DNA of 64,000 nt from Escherichia phage NHEP1. The translations under genes were made by a program, and so were the position numbers. Where the stretch lies: the sequence record PQ511146.1; one strand, 5' to 3'. This document shows, piece by piece, positions 4,314 to 21,524 of this stretch. The notes beneath the pieces were generated by a model. It worked only from the letters and a program-made list of their open reading frames with translations. It was not told the origin of the DNA and did not search any database. Every line of letters begins with the position of its first letter. Within the stretch, counting starts at the first letter, position 1.

Positions 4314-4342
4314 ACTATACCACCTTAAAATATAGCTGTCAA
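4314..4342 (-). promoter_or_regulatory. sigma70-like promoter (TTGACA-17-TATAGT)
   Basis: consensus -35 and 5/6 -10 upstream of gene 4090..4284. Confidence 0.5.
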
Positions 4343-4797
4343 CACTCTTTGTACTCCACCACGATAATATCTATATCAAAAGTGGCAAGGTTAATAATGT
4401 CCTCTACATGTTCCCACTTCAAACCGCCTATGCCGCACCCGATCTTAGGGATGTAGAATGGTAAAATCGACCCCTCAAATACTTCATTGACTCGCTCAAA
4501 TCCTTTCAGTATTGAGAAATATTCAGCATTAGGCCCTGGGTAGAACTGAGTATACAGATTTATTCCGTAGACAATACCTCTCGGAGATAAGTGCTCCCAG
4601 CGGGAGAACGCGCCCAGTTTACTTAGGCAACCGTGCATAGTCATTTTATCAGCTTCCAATGCTTGAGGGAACTCACGGGCAATCTGTTTTGCTACACCCT
4701 TACCCATTGTGTGGAAGCAGTTACAACCGTGGATCAGGTGACCATCACCGCTCTTAAAAAGGGAGATTAAATCTCCCTCTACAGTATCAATAATCAC
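4339..4797 (-). CDS. macro-domain (ADP-ribose binding/processing) protein
   Basis: IVIIDTVEGDL...HGCNCFHTMGKGVAKQI fits macro-domain N(x5)GxGVAxxI pattern; likely GTG start at 4797 after AGGAG, overlapping upstream stop; track ATG at 4878 lacks an SD. Confidence 0.5.
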   Translation of the reverse strand: MIIDTVEGDLISLFKSGDGHLIHGCNCFHTMGKGVAKQIAREFPQALEADKMTMHGCLSKLGAFSRWEHLSPRGIVYGINLYTQFYPGPNAEYFSILKGFERVNEVFEGSILPFYIPKIGCGIGGLKWEHVEDIINLATFDIDIIVVEYKEC

Positions 4798-5212
4798 GAT
4801 ATTCCAGCTCCTCTTCCACAATTTCAAAAAACTCAGTCCAGCACTGTGGCATATTGGAGTTACCGAAGTGGCTTTCATAGTAAAGGTTTTTACCGCTCGG
4901 AAGATAAAAATCTGTTACCTCATAAAATCCACAATCGTCGCACTCTCCCTCTTCAAACTTGGCCTTAACCTTAATGCCGAGGAAGGTGAAAAGTTTATGG
5001 ATATCTTCGGTCTCGAACTCCCAATTAATGTTGTTTTCCGCATCGGTGTAAAACTGGATCAGTAGGCCATCATCCATTTTTCCAAAATATTCTGTGAAGT
5101 AGCTTCCTTCCCAGAAGTCTTTGTGACAAATAATATCCATGCGCTTGCCCATAATAAAGGTGTGGGCGTTTCGTGCATCGTCACGAATCAGTTTTGGCAT
5201 TTCATAAATCAT
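4787..5212 (-). CDS. hypothetical protein (141 aa)
   Basis: ATG start; operon context. Confidence 0.6.
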   Translation of the reverse strand: MIYEMPKLIRDDARNAHTFIMGKRMDIICHKDFWEGSYFTEYFGKMDDGLLIQFYTDAENNINWEFETEDIHKLFTFLGIKVKAKFEEGECDDCGFYEVTDFYLPSGKNLYYESHFGNSNMPQCWTEFFEIVEEELEYRDY

Positions 5213-5277
5213 CGTAGTTCTCCAGGATCAATAGGTGGTGCTACAGGAAGATCATAAAACATGGCGATCACATTCTC

Positions 5278-5475
5278 TTACGCAGGGATTGCTTCAAACA
5301 GGCCGTTATCGATACCATCCTTCAAGTAAAGATTATACTCTATGTCAGTATCTGTGTAAAGGGCAGCATCTAGCATTCTATCTGTTAGTCCATCCATTGG
5401 GTGGAGAAACCACCACCCACGCCAGTCAAAGTAACAACCTGGTGCATCTTCTCTCACACGGATTCGATAAATCAT
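5278..5475 (-). CDS. hypothetical protein (65 aa)
   Basis: ATG with AGGAGG SD. Confidence 0.45.
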   Translation of the reverse strand: MIYRIRVREDAPGCYFDWRGWWFLHPMDGLTDRMLDAALYTDTDIEYNLYLKDGIDNGLFEAIPA

Positions 5476-5571
5476 GGGCAGTGGCCTCCTGTTAGTTACA
5501 CATCCCAGTTTTCTTCGTTCATTACATCCTCCAGCTCAACAAGGTTATAATTGCACACCTTACAACCCGTG

Positions 5572-5988
5572 TCAACAGAAAACTTCAACAAATTCTTCCA
5601 CAGTTTTAATGTCGTGGGAAAAAGGTTTGCGGCTATAACGGGCAATAGCACTGTCAACCACCGCCCGGTACTCCAAATCTTCAGAATATTTCATGAAGCA
5701 TTGCAACGTCTCTGGACAGATAGCCAGATAGCTCCACCACCCCTCTTCAGATTGGTAGTCAAATCCCATACTCTCTAGCCACGAAGCGTATACACCTGCA
5801 CCTTCCAGCCAGTGAGTATTTTCATCAAGGAACTTGTTCACAGTCATGTGAGCTTCTAAGCATTTATCCAACTCTTTTCCGTTAACCAGCCACGCACTGA
5901 CAGTGGCGCATCCAAGGTCCACAGATTGGGTTGATAGATTGTATTGGTCATAGTTCTCAGGTTTAACAATGATATCTTCTAATGTCAT
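5572..5988 (-). CDS. hypothetical protein (138 aa)
   Basis: ATG with AGAGAGGA SD 7 nt upstream. Confidence 0.6.
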   Translation of the reverse strand: MTLEDIIVKPENYDQYNLSTQSVDLGCATVSAWLVNGKELDKCLEAHMTVNKFLDENTHWLEGAGVYASWLESMGFDYQSEEGWWSYLAICPETLQCFMKYSEDLEYRAVVDSAIARYSRKPFSHDIKTVEEFVEVFC

Positions 5989-6005
5989 TTTTCAGTCCTC
6001 TCTAT

Positions 6006-6035
6006 ACAAAAATGCCCCACCCTTTCGGGCAGGGC
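6006..6035 (-). terminator. rho-independent terminator (GCCCUGCCC-GAAA-GGGUGGGGC + U-run)
   Basis: 9-bp stem with GNRA tetraloop followed by AUUUUUG on minus strand, just downstream of gene 6051..7277. Confidence 0.6.
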
Positions 6036-6050
6036 TATGTTGACTAGATG

Positions 6051-7277
6051 TTAAAAAGGTATGTCATCATCAAAGGCGTACTGTGCCGGATTCTGATCCA
6101 TCGGGTCGTCTTCCGCATCATCTACAGGAGGAGCGTCTACAGTGTTTTGCTGTGGGGCGGCTTCCTGTTTGGCAGCTTGAGGCTCTTGATGGTCAGTGAC
6201 TCCAGCACCGTTCTTGATCCAATCATACAACGGTTCAGCAAGATTAGTCAAGACATCTTTTGCCTCTGCAGTAATTGCTACTGCAAAATCATCAACTTTC
6301 GTTTTCTTGTCAATACGGCGACAAGCGTTCAATACCGCATTACCAACACTGGCACCTACTTCATCTTCAGTTCGGTTAGTGGCTTGAGCGTACTCTTTCT
6401 TAAGCTCGATGGTGACCACGTGCAGTGTTTTAGCCACATCTAAAGGACTGTCAATCTTAAACCCGCGATCCAGGATGATCTGCAATGCATTGATACTGTG
6501 CCCTGTCTCTACACCGATGGGGTCGTAAGAGGATTTACGCTTACCACCAGAACCTTGTGTACCGTTCTCTGCTTTAGGCGGGTAGGCCTTGAAGCCGCTG
6601 ATAATATTCCCGGTGTCTTTGTCAACAATAGCTGCAACACGACCACCTACCACCAGGTCTTTAAGCTGCTCATCAGAGACAACCATAGCACCTTCACCAA
6701 TCTTGTGATCATTGACAGTAACCACGTTGCCAACAATCTGAGTCACATCGCCATAGATGCGTAAAACGTCCTGATTGGCATTCTGCTGAGGTTTCTGCTT
6801 CTGGCCTTGTGATTGTGCACCTTGTTGCTGTTTTTGCTGCTGAGTCGCTGCTGGAGCCTCTCCTGCACCCAGCTTGACCATCTTAGCCAGGGAGCCTTTG
6901 TAATAGATCTTACCGTTATGCTCGTTTGCCTTCAAAGGGATATTTACGATCCATCCTGGCGTTACAGTTTCCCACTTGTCATCAATTTTAACAGAGACAG
7001 AGTCTTGATGACCCGGTTTAAGCAGCTTATCACCCATACTGATCCAAACTTCTTCACCACCTTGAAGCAGGTTATCAGAGGAATCCAGTTCAGAAATCAG
7101 TAAAGAGATGGTGTGGCTGGATTCAATTTTCTTACCTTGCCACACAGTGGTTTTAATACCTGTTGTAGGATCAGCACCTTTGATAGGCTTGATGCTGACA
7201 CGTTTAATCATGCCGTGAGCCAGTAAAACAGTTTCACGCGGATTCATCGGGTTAGCGAATTGTTGAATAACGCTCAT
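6051..7277 (-). CDS. putative ssDNA-binding / replication accessory protein with SSB-type C-terminal tip
   Basis: 408 aa; Q/G-rich low-complexity linker; ends ...QYAFDDDIPF, matching the E. coli SSB tip (DDDIPF); N-terminal fold not identified. Confidence 0.45.
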   Translation of the reverse strand: MSVIQQFANPMNPRETVLLAHGMIKRVSIKPIKGADPTTGIKTTVWQGKKIESSHTISLLISELDSSDNLLQGGEEVWISMGDKLLKPGHQDSVSVKIDDKWETVTPGWIVNIPLKANEHNGKIYYKGSLAKMVKLGAGEAPAATQQQKQQQGAQSQGQKQKPQQNANQDVLRIYGDVTQIVGNVVTVNDHKIGEGAMVVSDEQLKDLVVGGRVAAIVDKDTGNIISGFKAYPPKAENGTQGSGGKRKSSYDPIGVETGHSINALQIILDRGFKIDSPLDVAKTLHVVTIELKKEYAQATNRTEDEVGASVGNAVLNACRRIDKKTKVDDFAVAITAEAKDVLTNLAEPLYDWIKNGAGVTDHQEPQAAKQEAAPQQNTVDAPPVDDAEDDPMDQNPAQYAFDDDIPF

Positions 7278-7642
7278 TATTTATCTCCTTGTTCTTCGTT
7301 AGTGTTTGCCGTGTGTGCAAACCCTGCTTGAATTAATTTGTCCTGAACTTGAGCCAACAGGCCCATTGCAAAACTTGTGGTCCCAGAGAGGGCCATCAGC
7401 ATATCTCGTTGTTGAGCTACCCAACCTAAGGCATAGTCCAAACGACGATATTTTTCTTCTTCACGCAGAGCCTGGAATAATTGTTCAGCCTCTGGCTGTT
7501 GTGTAAGCTCCTGAAGTCTTCCCATGAAAGAAGAAAGCACTAGCAGAAGAGACACTTGATCTTTACTTAACCCTAAGAAAAATTCTTGAGGTTGTTCTTG
7601 CTCGTTCATCGCAACCGACGCTTGATCGTTCATTTGTTCCAT
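7277..7642 (-). CDS. hypothetical protein (121 aa)
   Basis: ATG 8 nt after GGAG; track TTG extension to 7753 covers hairpin and promoter-like sequence. Confidence 0.5.
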   Translation of the reverse strand: MEQMNDQASVAMNEQEQPQEFFLGLSKDQVSLLLVLSSFMGRLQELTQQPEAEQLFQALREEEKYRRLDYALGWVAQQRDMLMALSGTTSFAMGLLAQVQDKLIQAGFAHTANTNEEQGDK

Positions 7643-7686
7643 TATGGAATCTCCGATTTTATTTGAACAACATAGAAGGAGACACC

Positions 7687-7715
7687 ATTTTAGCATCTCC
7701 TTCTGCAAATTACAA
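7687..7715 (-). promoter_or_regulatory. candidate promoter (TTGTAA-17-TAAAAT) overlapping an inverted repeat
   Basis: hexamers derived from minus-strand reading; GAAGGAGA/TCTCCTTC inverted repeat overlaps. Confidence 0.3.
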
Positions 7716-7725
7716 CAGGTATTTG

Positions 7726-7971
7726 TTAGCCAATTACTTCGAAAGTACCCCAACTCCCGTTCAGCAGGCAGGTGATCGGATCACCATCATCGTCAATTAT
7801 TTCAAAGTTTTCAACATCCAGAATATGGTCATCGAACACAATGCTCTTATCGCCACCACCAGAAATAACAGCGTATTCCTTACCTTGTGTTAGGTTCTGG
7901 CAACCTTTGCCGCCGAAACCAACTTCAACACAACGTACTTTCTGTCCTGCGCGAGCAACTACTCCAGCCAT
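7726..7971 (-). CDS. hypothetical protein (81 aa)
   Basis: ATG start; operon context. Confidence 0.55.
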   Translation of the reverse strand: MAGVVARAGQKVRCVEVGFGGKGCQNLTQGKEYAVISGGGDKSIVFDDHILDVENFEIIDDDGDPITCLLNGSWGTFEVIG

Positions 7972-7988
7972 CTTAAGGTCTCCTGATA

Positions 7989-8291
7989 TTAATCGTCAAG
8001 TTCAAAATAGATTTTAACAGCTTCATCAAAGATTGGAATCCCGATGTTGTTGATAAGCTGCCAAACTACCATATCTTTTCCTGGATCTGGGAGAATGTCA
8101 ACCTTTCTCCATGCGCTATATATCCAGTTCGGACCGCCTTCTGCACTAACTGGTAGATTTTCACCAGCTTCTTGTAAATACTTATACAGCAAAAGGTATT
8201 CTGGGTACTCTAGAACACTGTCCTCTGTAGTATATAGCAGTTCACGGTATACTTTCAAGAATCCTGTTGGGTTGATGTTTTCAGTCTTCAT
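7989..8291 (-). CDS. hypothetical protein (100 aa)
   Basis: ATG 8 nt after AGGAGA; track start 8309 lacks an SD. Confidence 0.5.
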   Translation of the reverse strand: MKTENINPTGFLKVYRELLYTTEDSVLEYPEYLLLYKYLQEAGENLPVSAEGGPNWIYSAWRKVDILPDPGKDMVVWQLINNIGIPIFDEAVKIYFELDD

Positions 8292-8682
8292 TTGCTGCTT
8301 CTCCTGCATTCATCAGATCTGCCATAGCGTCACCAACGAAGAGGACAACCACGTCGTTGACAGCGTCAGCATCATCTTTATTGATGTTGCTGAATTTGGG
8401 GCACACTGCAATGACCATATAGACCCCGTTGCCCAACTGAACAGTGCGTGTAGTGCACATTAGTGTGGTGCTTGTGCCTTCTTTAAAGGCAAATCCTTGC
8501 AGACGTTCTTCCAGAGAGTCACCTGTGGATTTCAACAAGGCAAGATCGCCCAATGCGTAGGTAGTGTCCTCATAGGTCAGTCCAGAGGTCAATGTTGCCT
8601 TTCCATCAGAAACTATAATAACCCCATCGGCACCGTCAAGCTCAGAGGCTTCAAAGATATTAATATCCCAAATGTTTTTCAT
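8281..8682 (-). CDS. hypothetical protein (133 aa)
   Basis: ATG after GAGGAA; overlaps upstream stop. Confidence 0.55.
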   Translation of the reverse strand: MKNIWDINIFEASELDGADGVIIVSDGKATLTSGLTYEDTTYALGDLALLKSTGDSLEERLQGFAFKEGTSTTLMCTTRTVQLGNGVYMVIAVCPKFSNINKDDADAVNDVVVLFVGDAMADLMNAGEAANED

Positions 8683-8942
8683 CACGCTTCCTCGTCATCT
8701 AATGGGTTGAAGATTTCACCGAAGTATTCTAAGACTTCCAGCTCACGGGTGGTGCAGAAAACACAGTCCCCGTTGTCATCTTCGATAACGGCCTCTTTAC
8801 CAAGAACATCAACTTCAAATTCGTCGTTTAACAGAACGGAACCTGTGTAAACTTTATCTGCCGTGCAGTCCCGAAAAGCAGAGTCCTTCTCCAAGTAGTC
8901 TGGCTTAACCTTGGCTTTAATTCGTTGATATTGTTTGGTCAT
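8682..8942 (-). CDS. small protein, paralog family A (86 aa)
   Basis: ATG downstream of promoter; shares AF(R/K)DCT...DD(N/E)GD.V(F/W)CT motif with gene 9006..9260. Confidence 0.5.
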   Translation of the reverse strand: MTKQYQRIKAKVKPDYLEKDSAFRDCTADKVYTGSVLLNDEFEVDVLGKEAVIEDDNGDCVFCTTRELEVLEYFGEIFNPLDDEEA

Positions 8943-8973
8943 TGCTGTGGTCCCCTTTCGTTTTGATAGGGCC

Positions 8974-9002
8974 ATTATATTAGGCCCTATCGCTATTGTC
9001 AA
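8974..9002 (-). promoter_or_regulatory. consensus sigma70 promoter (TTGACA-17-TATAAT)
   Basis: verified through translation of the track ORF: its TTG 'start' is the -35 hexamer; spacer and -10 lie within palindrome ATAGGGCC...GGCCCTAT. Confidence 0.6.
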
Positions 9003-9005
9003 GTA

Positions 9006-9260
9006 TTAATGCTCAGGTTTTACAAAAACTACTTCGTTAACAGTGCACCAGACAGAATCCCCTTCATCATCTTTAAAGGTAAGACACTGGGCCGAGTTTT
9101 CCAACTCATCAAGTTCTTCTTGTGATAAATAGGTCCCTTCTTCCAGAAGGGCTTTTACCAGAGGGTTCTCACAAAACTCTGCTTCATAAATTGCACCGAG
9201 TGTGCAATCTTTAAAAGCTCGGTCATTTGCAACGCATTCTGGCTTCAAAGTAATTTTCAT
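9006..9260 (-). CDS. small protein, paralog family A (84 aa)
   Basis: ATG start; paralogous to gene 8682..8942. Confidence 0.55.
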   Translation of the reverse strand: MKITLKPECVANDRAFKDCTLGAIYEAEFCENPLVKALLEEGTYLSQEELDELENSAQCLTFKDDEGDSVWCTVNEVVFVKPEH

Positions 9261-9310
9261 CTTGGCGGTCTCCTTAATTATTTAAAATCAACGCTCTGTC
9301 TGTGTGGGGT

Positions 9311-9339
9311 ATCTTACATCTACCCCAACTTGTTGTCAA
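9311..9339 (-). promoter_or_regulatory. sigma70-like promoter (TTGACA-17-TAAGAT)
   Basis: consensus -35 overlapping stop of upstream gene; same -10 as the plus promoter at 29441. Confidence 0.45.
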
Positions 9340-9707
9340 CGACTATTTTCAATCATCCACCAAGGATCGAGATAAGTTTGTTGACTTTTTGCCCACTGGC
9401 AAACTTCATTGTACATCTGGATCTCTTTGTCCGTCAGTTCACGAATAGGCTCATCTATACCCTCATTTTTGTGGTAATCCCAGTCGGCATCGATTTCCCA
9501 CAACCATGACTTACGATCTTCACGTTTACGCACACAGAAGTCCCCAGGACGGCCTGCCAGTGCATTTAGGAACTCGTTCTCCGCTCGCTCCTGGAGAATA
9601 CTAAGGAGCAAAACGTTGGAGCATGACCGTAAAATATGCTTCAGCTCACAATCATCGATCTCAACTTCAATACGTTGCTTGACTGTGTGGGTACCTTTTA
9701 CTAACAT
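9336..9707 (-). CDS. hypothetical protein (123 aa)
   Basis: ATG 4 nt after GAGGAGG; track TTG start at 9734. Confidence 0.55.
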   Translation of the reverse strand: MLVKGTHTVKQRIEVEIDDCELKHILRSCSNVLLLSILQERAENEFLNALAGRPGDFCVRKREDRKSWLWEIDADWDYHKNEGIDEPIRELTDKEIQMYNEVCQWAKSQQTYLDPWWMIENSR

Positions 9708-9717
9708 TCTACCTCCT

Positions 9718-9912
9718 CTAGACGAACTCTGCAAGGGTTGTGTTGTTCACTGCACCGCAGTAGATGGAGTATCCCAACCCGTTAGGGTGTAGAAACCACG
9801 GCACACCTTGATCATCCTTCACGTATACATCTCCATTTTCCGTAAAGGGCCAATACTCTTCTCCAAGGGTAAAATACCTACTCATACCTTCAGCCAGATA
9901 CTTTACTTTCAT
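9718..9912 (-). CDS. small protein, paralog family B (64 aa)
   Basis: shares G..Y.V...D..G..WF/WY motif with the next two genes. Confidence 0.5.
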   Translation of the reverse strand: MKVKYLAEGMSRYFTLGEEYWPFTENGDVYVKDDQGVPWFLHPNGLGYSIYCGAVNNTTLAEFV

Positions 9913-10136
9913 AGATCCTCTTCAACAGCTACAAACTTGGCAAGTAGGGTGGTTCCATAGATATGATACTCACCGTTTGCCAGATGGGAGATAAACCAGG
10001 CAACACCGTCCTCGTCTTCGATCATATTGTTTCTGCGATCCTCGTCGTAATAAACCTTGTAGACCTTACCTTCTTCAAAGAATGATAGGTCTGTCATCTT
10101 CTCTTCTACAAATGTCGCTTTAACCAAAGTTGTCAT
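9909..10136 (-). CDS. small protein, paralog family B (75 aa)
   Basis: ATGA overlap with neighbours; paralog motif. Confidence 0.5.
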   Translation of the reverse strand: MTTLVKATFVEEKMTDLSFFEEGKVYKVYYDEDRRNNMIEDEDGVAWFISHLANGEYHIYGTTLLAKFVAVEEDL

Positions 10137-10417
10137 TGATCTGCCTCCTTCTTGTTGAGCCGGAACACTGCAATAATAGCATTTCCAAGATGCAGTGTCA
10201 AATCATTTCCCAGATACCATAACATTCCACGGTCATCTTTAATGAAAGGGTAACAATCCGGTGCCTTCCAGACATTATACACTTTGCCGACCTGAAAGAA
10301 ATCAGGCCCTGTTGGAATTTTAGTACCGGGCCATACTTGGGACACCTGAACGCATTCTACCTGCATAATGACAGGGATAGTCATGGAGGTAAATGTTTTT
10401 GTTGGTTCTACTACCAT
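10133..10417 (-). CDS. small protein, paralog family B (94 aa)
   Basis: ATG after GAGAGGAGA; track extension to 10507 would overlap the polymerase 3' end. Confidence 0.5.
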   Translation of the reverse strand: MVVEPTKTFTSMTIPVIMQVECVQVSQVWPGTKIPTGPDFFQVGKVYNVWKAPDCYPFIKDDRGMLWYLGNDLTLHLGNAIIAVFRLNKKEADQ

Positions 10418-10466
10418 AAAAGTCTCCTCTCTGTCTAACAACACTTCCGTGTGTTGATAGTTTACA

Positions 10467-13400
10467 TTAGTGACAATCACCCCAGTTACGACCGCACAAG
10501 TATTCACCTGTGATCTGGAACGGAACGCCCATCATTTTAGAAGCCTGCCAGAAGCAATGCACCACCATTTCGCCCACAGGGCTCCAGATAAGCTCAAGCT
10601 TTCCGTCATCATTCAAGATAGGATCGTATACCGTATTTCCATCCTTGTCAACCACTTCGTTTCCGTCCTCATCTTTGCGTGCCTTTTTGTACTTATGACC
10701 GTCGAACACATGAAGTTTAGCCTCTTGTTGGGCTTTAAATGTTTCCAGCTCTTCAATTGTGTCGAAGGTGTATACGGTTTTATACTTAGGTGTGTCAGGC
10801 ACTTGAAGCTGATATTCGTCATGGTAATAGATAATACGACGAACACCCTCATCATACCATCCACGCTTCACCATCTGGTGGTGCATGAGGATTCCGACCA
10901 AGTCGCACAACGATGCACCGCCATTTTGCTGATATGCATTAAGCAAAGAGTGTTTAGAGCGGGTCCAAATGGCATGCCCGTCAAAAGAGTAGATAAATTT
11001 CTTACCTGTTGCTTCCCAGAATTTCTCCAGATCCTCTTTACGCCCCTTAAGGCCCGGGTTGGCATCCCAGAGAGCATCAATTACTCTCTGTCCAAGTTCT
11101 GGAGAGATATCTAGCATATCTGCAACTTTATCTTTTTGTGCCCCGTACATAACCCCATATGTGACAGGCTTACCATCGTTACGGGAAATCTCCTTGCCTG
11201 CTACAGAAGAGTAAGCTTTGGCGTTATTACAGTTACCGCACACTGCCACTTTACCATTCCTTCTCACAATGATTGCTCCAGAAGGGACGGTAACGCAATA
11301 AACCAAAGAACCGCTCACCTCGACAGACTCTTTAGATAGTGTCAGCAACCCTGCTCTCTGTTTGCTACCAATCGTGATTCTGTGCTGTACGGAACGACCT
11401 TTTTTGTGAATCGCCACCGTATTATTCCGTAAACCACACTGAGTAGCCAGCGCAGACACAACCTCTACAGATTTCTTCCTGCACCCGGCCTGAGAGTAGT
11501 AGGCAACTTTTCCACCTTCGGAAGATACCCACCCGTCCCAGTTAGATAAAGAAGCTATAAACAGGTTTTTAGATTCTTTATCAAGGTCCATCAGGTTGTA
11601 GGTGAAATCCTTATTGCTGTCCAAAAACTCAAATACCCAGGACGGAACGTGGAATTGGAACCTTCTCGCCAGTAAGCCCCCTTTTGTGGTTTTCCCGCTC
11701 TGCTCTACATAACTAAGGCTTAGAGCAGAAAAAGTATCTAAAAGCGTTGCAACTTTTCTGCCCTTCCCGACCTGAATCCTGCACACGATGCTGCCGTCCT
11801 TATTTGTATGCAAGTGCCCATCATCGTGAATAGCAATAAGCAAATTAACCTGGGCAGGAGATAAGGTTGTATTCCCATAAAACTCTGCCGCATGGATAAA
11901 CCTTCTTCCTGAATTAGACCCTTTACCTGCTTTCAGGTCTTTTGCCAAATCTTCAAACAATTTATTGCTTCTGTGATCCACGGTCAGCATCCTGTGTTGA
12001 TCTGTAACCATAAAATCCACACTGCTGTTGTGGAAATGATACATATCCCCACAATAACTACGCTTAACGTAATTTAATGGAGTAACAAGGTTCATCGACG
12101 AGGTGTTGTGATCGTACTGGAACACCTGTGTTCCCGGATCAAGATCTTCAAACCTCACCCACCCTTTCTCCGTGAGAATTTGTGTATCTCCTGAATAACA
12201 GTGTGCATCGCCGTTACTTACAACATCATAATACAGACCGTTGTCAAACTCAAAGGCACCCCAGGCCCCGATGAGCTGCTCTAAGTTGGACCCGTCAATA
12301 CCGATCTCAAAGTATCCTGGAGGAACACCCCACAGACTACGCATCTCTTTACCCATAACCACTTTAGGAGATGGTTTAGGCATGTTTGCACAAATACTAT
12401 GTTTCTGTCTGGAAGTGTTTGTTAATCCAGAACTTTTAGCAGGAAGCTTGTGGTCAATCTTCAAACGTGGATGATTAAGAAGACCAGTATCAACCTTATC
12501 TTCCTTGATTGGATCAAGGACCGATCTGCGGTTTCGCAATGATAACCACAAAACGATATCTTTAGCCATCTCTCCGTTCAATTTTTCAAGATTCGGGCAC
12601 AGGTGTCCAAACGTATCTTTCAGTTGCGGAGAAGTAATAAGCGCTCTGGCTTTTCTACGTATCTTCCCAAACACTTCCTTTTTAATCCTTTCTGAGTTAG
12701 GGAAGCTTCGGAACTTATGCACAGTTGTCTGGAACTTGGCATCAGTTTTGTTCCAGAAGTTGATAATTAGATCACAATACTCTGACTCCAAAAGCTCGTC
12801 CATATATGCATATACTCGTGCATCAACATCTGCATCAGGTAAAGCTTTCTTCTTGCTGTCTTTAGTTACATCTTTAGTTCTCCACATTGTTGGGAGCCAA
12901 CCAGCACTGATCAGGTATCGCTTGATGTCGTCCTGATTGCTGATTTTCATAGGTATCTTGCAGTCAGGCATTCGCTTCTGCTGTAGGTCACTTATCGCCT
13001 GATCCATCAGCTCTTTAGGTAAAGGGTGTGGTGTAGAAGTTCCTTTGATATACCCCCTCAAGAAATCAGCCATCTTATCGGGGTCTTTACAGCCCATCTC
13101 TTCACACCATTTTATCCCCATCTTACTTACATCCCCTGTGGAGGTAAATGCTCGCTTAGGAGGAGCTTTGAACTCTAAAGCACTCATGTCCACAGGGTAG
13201 CCAAGCTTGTCTTTTAACCATTTCCAACCATTATTGGAGATTGTCCCATCTTGGTTAAACGGCTTTTCAGGGAACTTAGGCCGCTGAGACATTGATAACT
13301 CTTTTAAAGGAAGTTGTGGTTCAACACGATCAGCGATCTCTTTCATCCACGCATCGCAACGGTCACGTAAAGCAATAGCCCCATCTATGTCGAAATACAC

Positions 13401-14213
13401 CCCCTGTCGAGCCTGCAGCTCCATCAGGAAGTGCTGTAACATGCCTCGGCGTAATGCGTTCTTCCAGGTGATCTTCTTGAAGCCTTTCGGCTTCTCTTTG
13501 GCAGGATCGTACATAAAGTTCTGCATGTCAGATTTGCCGTAGAATACACCTTTTGATTCCGCTACCAACTCCTTCCAGAGCAACTCCTGGATGATAACGT
13601 CCTCGAACACACGATCCACATACTTCCACAGTGGAAGCTCACGCCAGTCATCGATTTGAACTTTCTGGTTACCAAGGGCATAGCCCCATGCCATAAGGCC
13701 ATGAGGCCCAACAGGCTGCATTTTCTTGGTAACTGGATTGAATACTGCGTCCGGACAACCTTTTGGCAAAGGGCGGTCAGGCCACAAGATTCGGCTCATC
13801 GCTAACGTATCAAACAGATTAACCGGGTGGTCGTTGATAGTCCCCATGCATTTAGGATCACGGAACATATCAAAATGAATACCGGATAATCTTTCCATCA
13901 GCATAAAGTCGTAACTGTAGCAGTTATGACAGTTCAAAGCCGTAGGTGACCAGTCTGAATTGCCTGTAAGCCAACCTTCCAACTCTGAAAAATCTGCTAT
14001 GCGAGCCTCAAAATCTGTATAAAGGGTCTTCTTTGCCAGAATGAAGTTCTTAGCTTTCTCCACATCCTCTTCAGAGTAGTGTGTGCGGTCATTTAGAGGA
14101 AGGAACAGCATAAAACGGTTCTTATTCAGCTCTTTAAACAAACCGCAGTGATAATAAAGATCTGGGTCTTCCAGCAGGCCAGAGGCCTCAAAATCGAACG
14201 ACCACATGCTCAT
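10467..14213 (-). CDS. family A DNA polymerase (3'-5' exo + pol) interrupted by an intein
   Basis: Exo I FDFEASGL; motif A IGIDGSNLEQL; motif B KPVTYGVMYG; motif C YYHDEY; AAGGAG SD; 1248-aa precursor. Confidence 0.9.
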   Translation of the reverse strand: MSMWSFDFEASGLLEDPDLYYHCGLFKELNKNRFMLFLPLNDRTHYSEEDVEKAKNFILAKKTLYTDFEARIADFSELEGWLTGNSDWSPTALNCHNCYSYDFMLMERLSGIHFDMFRDPKCMGTINDHPVNLFDTLAMSRILWPDRPLPKGCPDAVFNPVTKKMQPVGPHGLMAWGYALGNQKVQIDDWRELPLWKYVDRVFEDVIIQELLWKELVAESKGVFYGKSDMQNFMYDPAKEKPKGFKKITWKNALRRGMLQHFLMELQARQGVYFDIDGAIALRDRCDAWMKEIADRVEPQLPLKELSMSQRPKFPEKPFNQDGTISNNGWKWLKDKLGYPVDMSALEFKAPPKRAFTSTGDVSKMGIKWCEEMGCKDPDKMADFLRGYIKGTSTPHPLPKELMDQAISDLQQKRMPDCKIPMKISNQDDIKRYLISAGWLPTMWRTKDVTKDSKKKALPDADVDARVYAYMDELLESEYCDLIINFWNKTDAKFQTTVHKFRSFPNSERIKKEVFGKIRRKARALITSPQLKDTFGHLCPNLEKLNGEMAKDIVLWLSLRNRRSVLDPIKEDKVDTGLLNHPRLKIDHKLPAKSSGLTNTSRQKHSICANMPKPSPKVVMGKEMRSLWGVPPGYFEIGIDGSNLEQLIGAWGAFEFDNGLYYDVVSNGDAHCYSGDTQILTEKGWVRFEDLDPGTQVFQYDHNTSSMNLVTPLNYVKRSYCGDMYHFHNSSVDFMVTDQHRMLTVDHRSNKLFEDLAKDLKAGKGSNSGRRFIHAAEFYGNTTLSPAQVNLLIAIHDDGHLHTNKDGSIVCRIQVGKGRKVATLLDTFSALSLSYVEQSGKTTKGGLLARRFQFHVPSWVFEFLDSNKDFTYNLMDLDKESKNLFIASLSNWDGWVSSEGGKVAYYSQAGCRKKSVEVVSALATQCGLRNNTVAIHKKGRSVQHRITIGSKQRAGLLTLSKESVEVSGSLVYCVTVPSGAIIVRRNGKVAVCGNCNNAKAYSSVAGKEISRNDGKPVTYGVMYGAQKDKVADMLDISPELGQRVIDALWDANPGLKGRKEDLEKFWEATGKKFIYSFDGHAIWTRSKHSLLNAYQQNGGASLCDLVGILMHHQMVKRGWYDEGVRRIIYYHDEYQLQVPDTPKYKTVYTFDTIEELETFKAQQEAKLHVFDGHKYKKARKDEDGNEVVDKDGNTVYDPILNDDGKLELIWSPVGEMVVHCFWQASKMMGVPFQITGEYLCGRNWGDCH
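11232..12200 (-). other. intein (about 323 aa) within DNA polymerase, with LAGLIDADG-like endonuclease insert
   Basis: N-terminal CYSGDTQIL after extein ...GDAH; block B TDQH; block F VYCVTV; C-terminal ...VCGN followed by +1 Cys; LLIAIHDDGH and LFIASLSNWDGW resemble LAGLIDADG motifs. Confidence 0.7.
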
Positions 14214-14271
14214 ATACAGTTCTCCTTAAAGGGGAGGCGGTTGTACTACCCCTCCCACTCTTGGTTAAACA

Positions 14272-16350
14272 TTAAAAAGGTGTTTCGTCGTCTTCAAAAC
14301 CAGGAACGTGGTTAGAGGACGGATCATCATACTGAAGGTCTTCCTGTGTGTCAACAGGGTTAACAGCAGGGGTTATAACCTTATCAGCCACAACCTTGCC
14401 CACAGGTGTTTCTACAACTGCATGCTCCTGATCCTCAAACATAGCCTGAGGTCTCCAAACAACCTCCCCACCTTCCCCGTCTGTAAACATCTGCATTTCT
14501 TTGTCCCAGTACCAGTTGCTGGCATCATAGAACTTGCCTGTGTGGGGATCCATAACTAGAGTGTCCGCAATACCTAAGGTTTTTGCTGGGCGGTTTTTAA
14601 GACCTACCAGTCGGACACGTCCACGGGAACGATCCACCATCTCCTCTGCCTCTACCCCGACAACCACCCAGCTAAGTTGCTCCAATCCGGCACTACCGCG
14701 AAGGTTCTCTTTTCGTACAGGGTACCAGAAAGGTAACGGATTTCCATCCTTATCCTTCGGAGGTACAATCTCTGTGCGCTTCAGGTGAGCAATCACCAAG
14801 ATAAACACATTAAACTGCTTACAGAACGCGGCTAGTTGAGTCATAGCCATGTCAAGCTCTTTACGCTCATCCTTAACATTAAGCCCTGAAATCACCATAG
14901 ACAGGTGATCCAGCACAATGTAACGGCAGTGATACAGGCACACCATTTGTTTAAGCTTAGTGATCAGCTCATCTACAGGGATGGAGCCGAAATGCTTGAA
15001 CACTTTGATTTTTCCGGCCTTGGCCCAAGATTGATGAATCTCAGCGTGCTCCTGATCGGTCAGGAACTGACTGGGGTCTTCAACAAACTCTTTAACATCA
15101 AACCCCAGCTGGTTAGCGTACAGAGAGTTGATTGCTTCCTCAGGATCCTCTTCAAGGTGAATCAGGCACAGGCGATCATCCTCTTCATAATCATCAGCTT
15201 TAGGGCATGTTGGATCCATCAAGTATCTTGCAATGCAATGTTCCAGCTTCTTGGCTACAGTTGTTTTACCACCGCCAGACGGGCCTGTCAGCATCATCAA
15301 GGTGCCTTTGTGGAGTCCTTTCAGCATCTTCTGCAGTTTAGGGAACTCTGCACTGATATCTACGCCATTGGAAGTCTTCTTACGAAGAGATTCAATGGAG
15401 AAGTCTTCTAAATCAGATACAGCATCAGGCACATATTTGACTGGGTGACGGAACATGTTGACAATATCTTCCAGCTTTTTAGCCTTCAGCATGTCACGAA
15501 TATCTTTTACACCATCAGGGTCGTTTACCTCACCCGGGTATTCCACGTGGTAAACGTTATCAGCCATCAAAAATGCTGCGATATTATGTGTGGCTTCAAC
15601 ACCTTTAATAACGTGTTTTTGCTTCTCTACCTCGTTAGCTGCATCGTTGTCCATTGCAAGGACCACTGTTCCGTAGCTACGGATAAATTTCTCATTGTTC
15701 GCAAAAGTGTCTACGGCGTTTGCACACCCACAGTTAATTCCAACAAAAGGCAGGCATGGTTTTCCTGCCAGATCCCCGCCGTTGATAACTGCATCAATCC
15801 CATCCTGGACTTCTTTAGCCCACTGCTTCACCTTCGCTGGGGCTTTAGCATTGGTGAGAATTCCTTTTACTTGTATCTGATATGCAGCCTGCCACGCTGC
15901 AATAACATCTCCTTCTCCCTCACAAACGTTAATCTGCTTACGGTTGTTGGAGGATGCACACAGCTTTTGACCAAACATCTGGGAGTTGGCCTTTACTATG
16001 CCAACAACCGAGAAATGGCCCCTTTGCTCTTTAGGGATTGTCCAGTCACGCTTTTTAAAGCCAGATAGATTACCGTAGCGGTCATAATACGGAAAGTAGG
16101 TGGCAGTAACAGTTACACCATCCTCTTGGGATAGCGATGATCGTACACCAAAATATTGTGCAGCCATCAGTCCAATATTTTGTTGTGGAACAGGGACAAT
16201 TTTAGTGTTTTCTAAAACAGTCTCCACAGTTTCAACTTCTTTTTCATCACGATAGTCTCGTTTCACACTCCCCCCACTTTTATACTTAGTTGCTTTCGGG
16301 TTTGGCTCACCGAAACGGTTGTATGCAGATGCCATGAATTTACTGCCCAT
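14272..16350 (-). CDS. T7 gp4-like DNA primase-helicase
   Basis: TOPRIM-like VCEGEGDVIAAW; DnaB-type Walker A GPSGGGKTT and Walker B IVLDHL; acidic C-terminus ending DDETPF; AAGGAGAAG SD; no Cys4 zinc-binding domain seen. Confidence 0.85.
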   Translation of the reverse strand: MGSKFMASAYNRFGEPNPKATKYKSGGSVKRDYRDEKEVETVETVLENTKIVPVPQQNIGLMAAQYFGVRSSLSQEDGVTVTATYFPYYDRYGNLSGFKKRDWTIPKEQRGHFSVVGIVKANSQMFGQKLCASSNNRKQINVCEGEGDVIAAWQAAYQIQVKGILTNAKAPAKVKQWAKEVQDGIDAVINGGDLAGKPCLPFVGINCGCANAVDTFANNEKFIRSYGTVVLAMDNDAANEVEKQKHVIKGVEATHNIAAFLMADNVYHVEYPGEVNDPDGVKDIRDMLKAKKLEDIVNMFRHPVKYVPDAVSDLEDFSIESLRKKTSNGVDISAEFPKLQKMLKGLHKGTLMMLTGPSGGGKTTVAKKLEHCIARYLMDPTCPKADDYEEDDRLCLIHLEEDPEEAINSLYANQLGFDVKEFVEDPSQFLTDQEHAEIHQSWAKAGKIKVFKHFGSIPVDELITKLKQMVCLYHCRYIVLDHLSMVISGLNVKDERKELDMAMTQLAAFCKQFNVFILVIAHLKRTEIVPPKDKDGNPLPFWYPVRKENLRGSAGLEQLSWVVVGVEAEEMVDRSRGRVRLVGLKNRPAKTLGIADTLVMDPHTGKFYDASNWYWDKEMQMFTDGEGGEVVWRPQAMFEDQEHAVVETPVGKVVADKVITPAVNPVDTQEDLQYDDPSSNHVPGFEDDETPF

Positions 16351-17104
16351 TAATTCTTCTCCTTACTGCAGGCTCGTTTGCTAAGAATACAGCTCTTGCC
16401 CAGCCACGTGGTGTAAGGCTTCGAATCATCTTCGTCCTTGCACTCTTTCCACCTAGCTTAGCGTGTTGCATGGAATAACCACTAACCGCATCAACTATTT
16501 GCGGGACAGGTTTTGTGGCGGGGATTATAAATCCATTGCCTATCCAACCGCAAGTTATTTTTGGGTAGGCATCACGTGGAGCTATAAATTCAGGAAACCA
16601 TGGGTTTACATCATCCTCTGGTAAATACCCACCATAATCCGAAGGATGAAAACGGTAATCAGGTTTTCGCCACAGTGTTGACATAACTCCTACAGGGTTC
16701 TCTACATGCCACGGGCAATCGTAAATCTCTCCCAACTCTTCTGCAACCCGAGCATCTTTCACAGCATTAATTTGGATCAGAGGATCCTTAGCCAGCTTTT
16801 TCTTAAAGTGTGCAGCTCCGGATACTGCTAAATGCGTGCACGGAGGAAATGCAAGAATAAAGTCTGGAGCCGGATACATGCAAAAAGTTTCTTGAGGGAA
16901 CCATGGATCAATCCAATAATCCACATAGTGAATGTTAGGATGATCGGTTATCACCTCTACATAACTACCGTGGTCAGCACCTTCTGCATTAAAGCACAGG
17001 CACAGGTACCCAGCTTTTGCCCAGTCAATAACTGCACCACCGGACCCGTCAAATAGACTCCACACGACACCTTTGTGGTAGTGTTCTTTGTAGATAAATT
17101 TCAA
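16340..17104 (-). CDS. DNA (cytosine-5)-methyltransferase-like protein
   Basis: motif I FDGSGG, motif IV FPPC, motif VI HVENPVG; TTG start 7 nt after AGGAGA; track GTG at 17134 lies inside the terminator hairpin. Confidence 0.5.
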   Translation of the reverse strand: MKFIYKEHYHKGVVWSLFDGSGGAVIDWAKAGYLCLCFNAEGADHGSYVEVITDHPNIHYVDYWIDPWFPQETFCMYPAPDFILAFPPCTHLAVSGAAHFKKKLAKDPLIQINAVKDARVAEELGEIYDCPWHVENPVGVMSTLWRKPDYRFHPSDYGGYLPEDDVNPWFPEFIAPRDAYPKITCGWIGNGFIIPATKPVPQIVDAVSGYSMQHAKLGGKSARTKMIRSLTPRGWARAVFLANEPAVRRRINGQ

Positions 17105-19815: not shown

Positions 19816-20157
19816 CTACTCAAGGTCTTCAGAGTCAAGCTCAAAAAGAATCAAACTGTGCATGCCTGCAGAGAGATCAACACACCCTGCAACAATAAGG
19901 GTTTGATAGTAAGGTTCAGCACCCTCAATATCTTCGTTAAAATCCACAACAAGGTAGTCACCTTTGTTAAAGGTGTATTTGTCCGATGTAAACGCAAAAC
20001 CTGCCCAGTCCCCTACTGCAGGATCTTTATCAGTCACCTTTGTTAGCAGTAGATCTTTTTCACGAGATCTTTTAGTAAAATCGTGAATCACAACATCCTT
20101 CTCTTCAGGAGTCGGATTGCCACACACGTAGTTAACGATATTTCTCCACAAACTCAT
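19816..20157 (-). CDS. hypothetical protein (113 aa)
   Basis: ATGA overlap with helicase gene. Confidence 0.55.
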   Translation of the reverse strand: MSLWRNIVNYVCGNPTPEEKDVVIHDFTKRSREKDLLLTKVTDKDPAVGDWAGFAFTSDKYTFNKGDYLVVDFNEDIEGAEPYYQTLIVAGCVDLSAGMHSLILFELDSEDLE

Positions 20158-21524
20158 ACGTCCCCCTTTTCTGCTCTAGTTTCAAAATCTTTCCTGACTT
20201 TCTCGTCTAAGCCAGGGAAAGTTGTATTATAAAACTCTACGACTCTCGGGTCAACAATAATATCCACCTCTCTTAATGGACGCAACAAGTTTATTCCTTG
20301 TATCGTCTTAACCCGACTCAAGGCAACATACGTCATTCCGGGAGAGAAAGCTCCGTTCTTTCCGAGGTCTAGGTTGTAACAATCTAACGTAAGTCCTTGA
20401 CTTTTATGCGATGTTACTGCGTACCCAGATTTCAAAGGAAGTTGCTCATAAGACCCGATCACAACCCTCTCTATGAACTTCTCCATCTTCCTTTCGGCAA
20501 TATTGTACCTCTGGGAAGGTTTGTACTCGTTATTCTCCCACAATCTCGGCTCAATTTCAACCTGTGTCCCGTCTTCCAGCTCAACCACCACAGACTTGGT
20601 CTTGAATTTTACCACTGTGGCGCGTGTCCCGTTGACATAGTACGGAACTTTATGTGTCGGGTCAACATCGTTTGAGGTTATCATAACCTTCATCCCTATC
20701 TTCAGCCTCATTTCCTGCTCCACAGGCAGTGTGGAGGGGAACTTACCTTTCATTTTACCAATGTAGGTCTTCTCTGGGGCCTTGATGGCATCATAGAAAC
20801 GTCTGTTCACCTCCTCTGCTTGCTTATTGGTGGCACAGATGGTCAAGGCATCTGTTGGGACACCACCATGATAGCAACGAGTGTTAAGCTCTGCTACAAC
20901 CTCTTTTATGCGACGACCTTCACGAACACAGTTCAACATTGTGGCGAAGCGAACAGATTCCTGACGGAACTGGTCTACTAATGCTATATTGTGAAGATTA
21001 AGATCCTCCCAAGATTTTGTATAGCAACACAGGTCTGTGTGGTAGAAGTTGAAGTAGGCTTCTTTCTCCATAGAAGAGACAACTGGGGGTGCTTGGTAGA
21101 AATCTCCAAACAATAGCACCTGAATGCCTCCGAAAGGTTTGTCATTTTTCCGAAGAAAGCGGAGTTTTCTATCCATCTCTATGAACTTGTCAGCACGGAT
21201 CATAGAGATTTCATCGATAATTAGGATGGTAAATGCCTTGCTTTTCAGAGGCTTTGCTGTTTTTGCCCTTATTGCTGTCCAGTCTGACTCCATGCTCACA
21301 CCTGCGGCAAGATCGAAAGTTCGGTGCGCTGTTGCTCCATTAACGTTTAAAGCGGCTACCCCTGTCGGGGCAACCGTTATGCAAGAGTCTCCATACATGG
21401 ACTGGATCATGTTGATAAGATATGTCTTCCCGGTTCCACCGGGTCCACTTACGAAGACATTCTCACCACTCATGATTGCAACAAGGGCAGCATCTGTGCC
21501 TACATCGTACTGCCCTTTTTCCAT
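20154..21524 (-). CDS. SF1B DNA helicase (Dda/RecD/Pif1-like)
   Basis: Walker A GPGGTGKT, Walker B IIDEISM, C-terminal TSHKSQGLTLD and YVALSRVK motifs. Confidence 0.85.
   Translation of the reverse strand: MEKGQYDVGTDAALVAIMSGENVFVSGPGGTGKTYLINMIQSMYGDSCITVAPTGVAALNVNGATAHRTFDLAAGVSMESDWTAIRAKTAKPLKSKAFTILIIDEISMIRADKFIEMDRKLRFLRKNDKPFGGIQVLLFGDFYQAPPVVSSMEKEAYFNFYHTDLCCYTKSWEDLNLHNIALVDQFRQESVRFATMLNCVREGRRIKEVVAELNTRCYHGGVPTDALTICATNKQAEEVNRRFYDAIKAPEKTYIGKMKGKFPSTLPVEQEMRLKIGMKVMITSNDVDPTHKVPYYVNGTRATVVKFKTKSVVVELEDGTQVEIEPRLWENNEYKPSQRYNIAERKMEKFIERVVIGSYEQLPLKSGYAVTSHKSQGLTLDCYNLDLGKNGAFSPGMTYVALSRVKTIQGINLLRPLREVDIIVDPRVVEFYNTTFPGLDEKVRKDFETRAEKGDV

Follow-up and report, generated by a model that had tools for sequence, protein, structure and literature searches.

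An SSB-like gene closes the replication block of phage NHEP1

The DNA analysed here, hereafter the window, is a 64,000-nucleotide stretch of Escherichia phage NHEP1 (PQ511146.1). An open reading frame (orf) at positions 6051–7277 encodes a 408-aa product, referred to here as the SSB-like protein; the initial annotation had located the orf correctly and left its strand unstated, which is minus (Table 1). The gene starts with an ATG (7277–7275) that overlaps the upstream orf's stop codon (TAATG), and it ends in a stop codon at 6051–6053, 16 nt ahead of a strong terminator-like hairpin. The replication genes of the window, namely those encoding a PIF1-like helicase, a gp4-type primase-helicase, and a DNA polymerase, several small orfs, and the SSB-like orf, are all on the minus strand. 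The SSB-like gene closes this block downstream of the primase-helicase and the polymerase and is followed by the terminator, a layout that is shared with PVP-SE1, CR3, and the phi92-like phages. The gene for the PIF1-like helicase (20154–21524, minus strand; E = 1e-33) is additional to that for the gp4-type primase-helicase. Two genes downstream of the SSB-like gene is a 179-aa orf with a Macro domain (4339–4878, minus strand; E = 2e-7), whose counterpart in FV3 is annotated as 'phosphatase'.

Vequintavirus comprises rV5/FV3-like myoviruses of ~136 kb. A megablast search with positions 5000–17000 of the window matched 125 phage records, nearly all of them Escherichia Vequintavirus, at 90–99% identity. 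The homologs of the SSB-like protein are listed as 'hypothetical protein' in essentially all Vequintavirinae records, and no SSB is named among the 218 CDS that RefSeq annotates in the related FV3 genome; the phi92-like homolog is named SSB in two GenBank records. The NHEP1 protein matched the profile of PHROG 4477 ('unknown function') over its full length (residues 1–408, E = 3.3e-171), as did phi92-like and metagenomic relatives, and a literature search found no paper on this family. About 20 of the records are named 'Campylobacter phage' with C. jejuni as the host (e.g., MG065666, MG065690, MG065672, MG065682, and MG065656); they have 97% protein identity to E. coli Vequintavirus and phi92-like phages, and their C. 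jejuni host labels look doubtful.

Table 1. Features of the SSB-like gene, its product, the associated replication genes, and the capped relatives. Coordinates without a prefix refer to the window; those with an L prefix refer to loci in related sequences.
Feature	Coordinates	Strand	Basis or remark
Gene for the 408-aa SSB-like protein, PHROG 4477	6051..7277	−	Homolog of rV5 gp209, FV3_00195, and PVP-SE1 gp038
GGAG ribosome-binding site	7285..7288	−	Seven bases upstream of the SSB-like start
Intrinsic-terminator-like hairpin	6014..6035	−	9 pairs, 7 of them G-C, then a T run
aa 1–140, all-beta N-terminal domain, predicted OB-like ssDNA-binding core	6858..7277	−	AlphaFold model
aa 141–169, Q-rich disordered linker	6771..6857	−	13/29 Q, pLDDT <50
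aa 170–235, small five-stranded beta barrel, OB/SH3-like	6573..6770	−	AlphaFold model
aa 251–357, four-helix domain	6207..6527	−	AlphaFold model, pLDDT ~90–92
aa 358–402, disordered acidic linker rich in D, A, Q, and P	6072..6206	−	Model and composition
aa 403–408, DDDIPF tip	6054..6071	−	Same six residues as at the C-terminus of E. coli SSB
gp4-type primase-helicase, 692 aa, ending in FEDDETPF	14272..16350	−	Tip codons at 14275–14292
DNA polymerase, candidate acidic-tail receptor by T7 gp5 analogy	10467..14213	−	Weak family A match
Capped SSB-like genes	L001:4650-5918, L006:20001-21230, L002:3563-4510, L009:6001-7230		
Capped primase-helicase genes	L012:938-2992, L011:5001-7064		
Endonuclease genes starting inside the cap	L001:4055-4678, L012:2964-3425		29-nt overlap

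The C-terminal tip is identical to that of E. coli SSB and is a hallmark of the family

The SSB-like protein ends in QYAFDDDIPF (longer end, ...DQNPAQYAFDDDIPF; tail peptide carrying the tip, PAQYAFDDDIPF), and E. coli SSB, whose query sequence matched PDB 1EQQ/4MZ9 at 100%, ends in PPMDFDDDIPF (...SNEPPMDFDDDIPF; also written ...EPPMDFDDDIPF). The last seven residues (FDDDIPF) are thus identical in the two proteins, which bears out the earlier claim that the host SSB tip is copied exactly at the end of the phage protein. Among the 280 window orfs of at least 50 aa, four have an aromatic end after an acid-rich stretch, and an acidic run with a PF end was found only in the SSB-like protein and the primase-helicase.

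A word-indexed search returned 49 homologs of the SSB-like protein, and P407 and F408 were invariant in the 22 that were aligned, down to 35% identity. Among 1.84 billion cluster representatives, a profile search recovered 174 family members, which represent clusters at 50% identity, and tips were counted in the 131 near-full-length representatives (at least 220 aa) among them. Of these, 105 end in PF and 119 in an aromatic residue, and the tip consensus is D-F-D-D-D-[I/L/V]-P-F; 28 of the 131 end in DDDIPF and four in PPMDFDDDIPF, i.e., with 11 residues identical to E. coli SSB. Homolog P0047, from the word-indexed search, has 12 terminal residues in common with E. coli SSB. Outside the tip, the family members share only ~25% identity. 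When a 60-member family profile was compared with the PDB sequences, the core was without any match, and the best match, which was also the only one below E = 0.1, was the tail of E. coli SSB (E = 0.015). Likewise, the sole resemblance that a tblastn search with E. coli SSB found in the window and the FV3 genome was the tail of the SSB-like orf (E ~0.01).

Because P and F are invariant and DFDDD[ILV]PF is conserved in a family with so little identity elsewhere, the sequence comparisons place the tip ending far beyond chance. Low-complexity acidic tails are common and the tail-only tblastn E-value is modest, but a match by composition or chance is very improbable given the fixed last two positions, the family-wide motif, and a profile whose one match below the cut-off was the E. 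coli SSB tail; the initial annotation had named a purely compositional similarity as what would overturn its reading, and the conservation of the tip contradicts it. Recent capture of the 3' end of host ssb was considered as a source of the tip and rejected; a blastn search of 5,426 E. coli genomes with the last 150 nt of the gene gave no match, and the tip codons of host ssb presumably differ from those of the SSB-like gene. In three relatives (P0069, P0126, and L002:3563-4510), the tails alone also matched the C-terminal ends of PHROG 18154 (annotated SSB) and PHROG 2544 (unknown function), so the bacterial-type tip turns up repeatedly, on several phage protein families that are not otherwise related.

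Domain architecture and predicted fold

An AlphaFold2 model built from 22 sequences had a mean pLDDT of 72.9 and a pTM of 0.35, the low pTM being attributable to flexible linkers. In the model, the protein is divided into three folded domains, two disordered linkers, and the tip (Table 1). The N-terminal beta domain, basic with a pI of 8.8, occurs in most family members. The small barrel, whose strands 3 and 4 flank a short helix, is missing from the ~270–300-aa family members, of which there are many, and from the 315-aa phi92-like protein. It is connected by a short G/S/K linker to the four-helix domain, where conservation within the family is highest. The disordered acidic tail (residues 358–408) has a pI of 4.05, with 13 acidic residues versus one basic residue. 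A Q/G-rich linker like that of SSB had been noted previously; such a linker exists, but it is located between the two beta domains and is not adjacent to the tip.

A fold prediction had been suggested in the initial annotation as a check for an OB domain, and an OB fold is indeed predicted. Bacterial and mitochondrial SSBs were among the best fold matches of the SSB-like protein, and matches to RecO covered just 86–88 residues, corresponding to the OB part; the domain giving the OB matches was deduced from the aligned lengths rather than read from the search output. A Foldseek search against viral models returned family members, all of them 'uncharacterized', and marginal matches of the gp2.5/DUF2815 type (E ~6e-3). 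A separate structural search with the four-helix domain returned no informative relative, and RecO was not among its results.

The SSB-like protein differs from the known SSB families

Searched as a single sequence against Pfam, NCBIfam, and the PDB sequences, the SSB-like protein gave nothing above noise, and a Pfam scan of 60 family members found no match to SSB (PF00436), DUF669, DUF2815 (PF10991), or gp32. Alignment of the family with T7 gp2.5 using hhalign gave a probability of 0.2%. In tblastn searches of the window and FV3, the OB domain of E. coli SSB (residues 1–115) reached a best E-value of 1.6, and T7 gp2.5 gave E >2. By sequence, the SSB-like protein is thus not a member of the bacterial SSB, gp2.5/DUF2815, DUF669/N4, or gp32 families. 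Since bacterial and mitochondrial SSBs are among its best fold matches, distant descent from a bacterial SSB, with the tail retained, is possible.

Acidic tails that end in Phe are well known on phage SSBs and helicases, as are host-type tips on those phage SSBs that are homologs of bacterial SSB. The SSB-like protein resembles bacterial SSB (E. coli SSB, PF00436) in its predicted OB core, its disordered linker, and its acidic D-D-D-[IL]-P-F tip, in which seven residues are identical here and 11 in some family members. However, the two have no detectable sequence similarity in the core, the phage protein is far longer (408 aa versus ~178 aa for E. coli SSB) and has an additional small beta barrel and four-helix domain, and its Q-rich linker is internal. 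To our knowledge, no known SSB has these two extra domains. The SSB of phage HK620, in comparison, is a bacterial-SSB homolog, and its last six residues are needed to recruit the phage's own Sak4 (PMC5928155). With the T7 system, NHEP1 shares a gp4-type primase-helicase, a polymerase that is weakly of family A, and Phe-ended acidic tails on both the SSB candidate and the helicase; it differs from T7 gp2.5 in the mismatch of the family profile and the lack of a DUF2815 match, and the Foldseek matches to DUF2815-type proteins are marginal. The tips are also of different types, with the bacterial IPF in the PHROG 4477 protein versus GDF and TDF in T7 (gp2.5, ...ADEDGDF; gp4, ...WSNDTDF). Orphan phage SSBs such as N4 SSB (DUF669) and Enc34 SSB have highly diverged OB-folds and are identified mainly by an acidic C-terminal tail and the absence of another SSB (Kazlauskas et al., 2016; PMC4889955). 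These families are a precedent for the SSB-like protein; DUF669 matched none of the 60 family members, and the domain layout is different.

The primase-helicase has a related tail

The primase-helicase matched DnaB_C (E = 3.8e-13), AAA_25 (E = 1.6e-15), and PHROG 239 'DNA primase/helicase' (E = 3.5e-158), and its C-terminus is ...VPGFEDDETPF. As had been proposed earlier, this is an acidic tail with a terminal Phe, as in T7 gp4: of the 120 homologs, which reach down to 42% identity and include Vibrio phages, 112 have an acidic-x-PF end. The tail drifts among the homologs (e.g., DLDSDSPF, DFDNDTPF, EDEDCPF, and EEDDEPF), whereas the tail of the SSB-like protein stays host-like. The match of the polymerase to family A is weak (21.4 bits against a cut-off of 34.3 bits). 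Judged from these matches, the replication genes look T7-like.

The polymerase gene of NHEP1 is a single 1248-aa orf with an insert of ~324 residues (aa 672–995; window 11229–12200, minus strand). The insert begins with CYSGDTQILT, ends in ...VAVCGN ahead of a Cys, and resembles an intein that has LAGLIDADG-like motifs; among the Pfam matches listed at E <= 0.001, there was none to an intein. The polymerases of FV3, JEP1, and PVP-SE1 are without this insert and are split further downstream (after ~aa 1131) into two orfs, between which HNH or LAGLIDADG endonuclease genes are located in FV3 and PVP-SE1.

In some relatives the tip is capped

Some relatives continue for ~15 residues past PF, with AP[I/V]GLQY and seven to eight residues more, an extension that we refer to as the cap. 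Capped SSB-like proteins were found in JEP1, PVP-SE1 (gp038), the phi92-like ESCO32, P0044, P0049, P0052, and P0104, and the capped tail of JEP1 and PVP-SE1 is ...DDDIPFAPIGLQYGRNFIHCI. The same cap follows PF in two primase-helicase homologs (...NDTPFAPIGLQYANHAIYVL and ...DDDTPFAPIGLQYAKHAIYVI), and it is absent from both the SSB-like and the primase-helicase genes of the window. Capped tip variants thus exist, which is a new observation.

In JEP1, a gene annotated as 'endonuclease VII' starts inside the cap with a 29-nt overlap. The window phage has neither cap nor endonuclease, and in PVP-SE1, ESCO32, and the contig of the metagenomic relative P0044, the cap is present with no endonuclease downstream. 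The first seven cap codons differ between lineages almost only at synonymous positions, which indicates that the cap peptide is under selection. We considered whether the JEP1 cap is a mere by-product of endonuclease insertion and rejected this as a full explanation because of the caps that occur without an endonuclease and the synonymous-only codon variation. At one of the capped primase-helicases, a gene starts 29 nt before the stop codon, and over the first 48 residues of its product, which are Cys-rich, there is 65% identity to the N-terminus of the JEP1 endonuclease; the endonucleases at L001 and L012 have this N-terminal part in common and differ in their C-terminal parts. The other capped primase-helicase is followed only by a decayed remnant of the endonuclease start (L011, ~7040–7064). 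In the window, the last 12 bases of the SSB-like and primase-helicase genes, stop codon included (6051–6062 and 14272–14283), are nearly identical (ATACCTTTTTAA and ACACCTTTTTAA) and could be a shared homing site. The simplest reading of these sequences is that the DNA encoding the tip, in both genes, is the target of a homing-endonuclease cassette, which carries the conserved cap along.

The partners of E. coli SSB have pockets that bind the last Phe of the tip by its free carboxylate. In the capped relatives, this Phe is not C-terminal, which does not fit the E. coli mode and counts against a simple free-Phe mechanism. The viability of phages with a capped tip points to one of two things: the Phe need not be terminal and free in every case, or the cap is itself functional.

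The PHROG 4477 protein as the probable SSB of the phage

An SSB gene is usual in large lytic phages with a polymerase and a primase-helicase of their own, and SSBs whose OB fold has diverged are known to go undetected (PMC4889955). We consider it probable that orf 6051–7277 encodes the phage's own ssDNA-binding protein, belonging to the uncharacterised PHROG 4477 family and carrying a bacterial-type SSB tip. In favor of this assignment are the identity of the tip and its status as a family hallmark, the succession of a basic beta domain and an acidic tail, the position in the replication block, the lack of any other recognisable SSB, the conserved tail of the primase-helicase, and the two GenBank records that use the SSB label. 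Several observations speak against it: the core is linked to no SSB family by any of the sequence methods tried; the best-conserved part is the four-helix domain, which is without a known counterpart in SSBs and gave no informative fold match; and in the capped relatives the Phe of the tip is not terminal.

From these data we infer ssDNA binding, the partners of the tip, and the role of the helical domain as follows. The N-terminal OB-like beta domain would coat ssDNA at the phage replication fork, and in NHEP1 the second small beta barrel may assist in this. Self-association or partner binding is the probable role of the conserved four-helix domain, and the long disordered acidic tail would present the bacterial-type tip (DFDDDIPF) as a docking peptide. 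Within the phage, the tip may contact the T7-like replisome, whose primase-helicase bears the related DDETPF tail. In T7, gp2.5 uses its acidic tail to bind a basic patch on the polymerase and cannot do without the last Phe of that tail, and gp5 has been seen with a DTDF peptide from the gp4 tail bound to it (PMC12339929; bioRxiv 10.64898/2026.02.22.705581). By analogy with gp5, the NHEP1 polymerase might be the common receptor of both tails, and the phage replisome might be assembled via acidic tails, as the initial annotation had envisaged. The tip may also engage the host partners of SSB (e.g., chi, PriA, RecQ, RecJ, ExoI, RecO, Ung, and DnaG), which would be brought to, or diverted from, phage ssDNA. 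The tip of E. coli SSB is a docking site for many genome-maintenance proteins, with DnaG and chi as documented cases (PMC3632105 and PMC5872125), and by this analogy the capture of host SSB partners is plausible. That the tail of the SSB-like protein has stayed host-like while that of the primase-helicase drifts hints that the tip may serve host partners as well.

Two other functions were weighed against that of an SSB. The host-type tip could make the protein a decoy or hub that soaks up or redirects host SSB-interacting enzymes, e.g., nucleases and helicases that attack phage DNA or serve host replication, with DNA coating not its main job. Such a role would suit a tip that has remained strictly host-like (DFDDDIPF, with up to 11 identical residues) next to a primase-helicase tail that has drifted, and a protein whose best-conserved part is a helical domain of unknown role rather than the OB domain. 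We nevertheless regard it as unlikely, for the predicted OB fold sits where the core of an SSB is expected, no other SSB is recognisable in a phage that brings its own polymerase and primase-helicase, and a folded body of 350 residues would be needless for a decoy. Alternatively, the protein could be a recombination mediator, a single-strand annealing protein, or a helicase loader with an SSB-like tail; an OB domain together with a helical one is reminiscent of RecO, and annealing is also among the activities of T7 gp2.5. To this we give little credence: the RecO matches are confined to the OB part, the separate search with the helical domain did not return RecO, and RecO binds SSB tips and does not carry one. 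A mediator or annealing role would, moreover, be compatible with that of an SSB, the function that we prefer.

Significance

What is new here, as far as the literature searched shows, is a large unnamed family that combines an unrecognisable core and two extra domains with an exact bacterial tip. The PHROG 4477 protein probably supplies the missing SSB of the rV5-, PVP-SE1-, and phi92-like phages, and naming it would fill this slot in phages that are widely used as candidates for therapy and biocontrol. A more far-reaching proposal, which we put forward tentatively and consider rather doubtful as a whole, is that PHROG 4477 constitutes a distinct and widespread class of phage SSBs (OB plus four-helix) that plugs phage ssDNA into the host SSB interactome, that the cap switches access to both tips, and that the homing cassette spreads the cap. 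Phage SSBs trigger several defence systems, including retron Eco8, Hna, AbpAB, and DARNA, so an unrecognised SSB family would matter for predicting which defences sense these phages. With a non-homologous core joined to the exact host SSB tip, the family is a natural experiment on tip function, and the capped variants, together with an endonuclease cassette located exactly after the PF codon of two genes, are a natural tip-masking series. The SSB-like protein also offers direct access to the question of whether host enzymes docking on SSB are borrowed or blocked by lytic phages.
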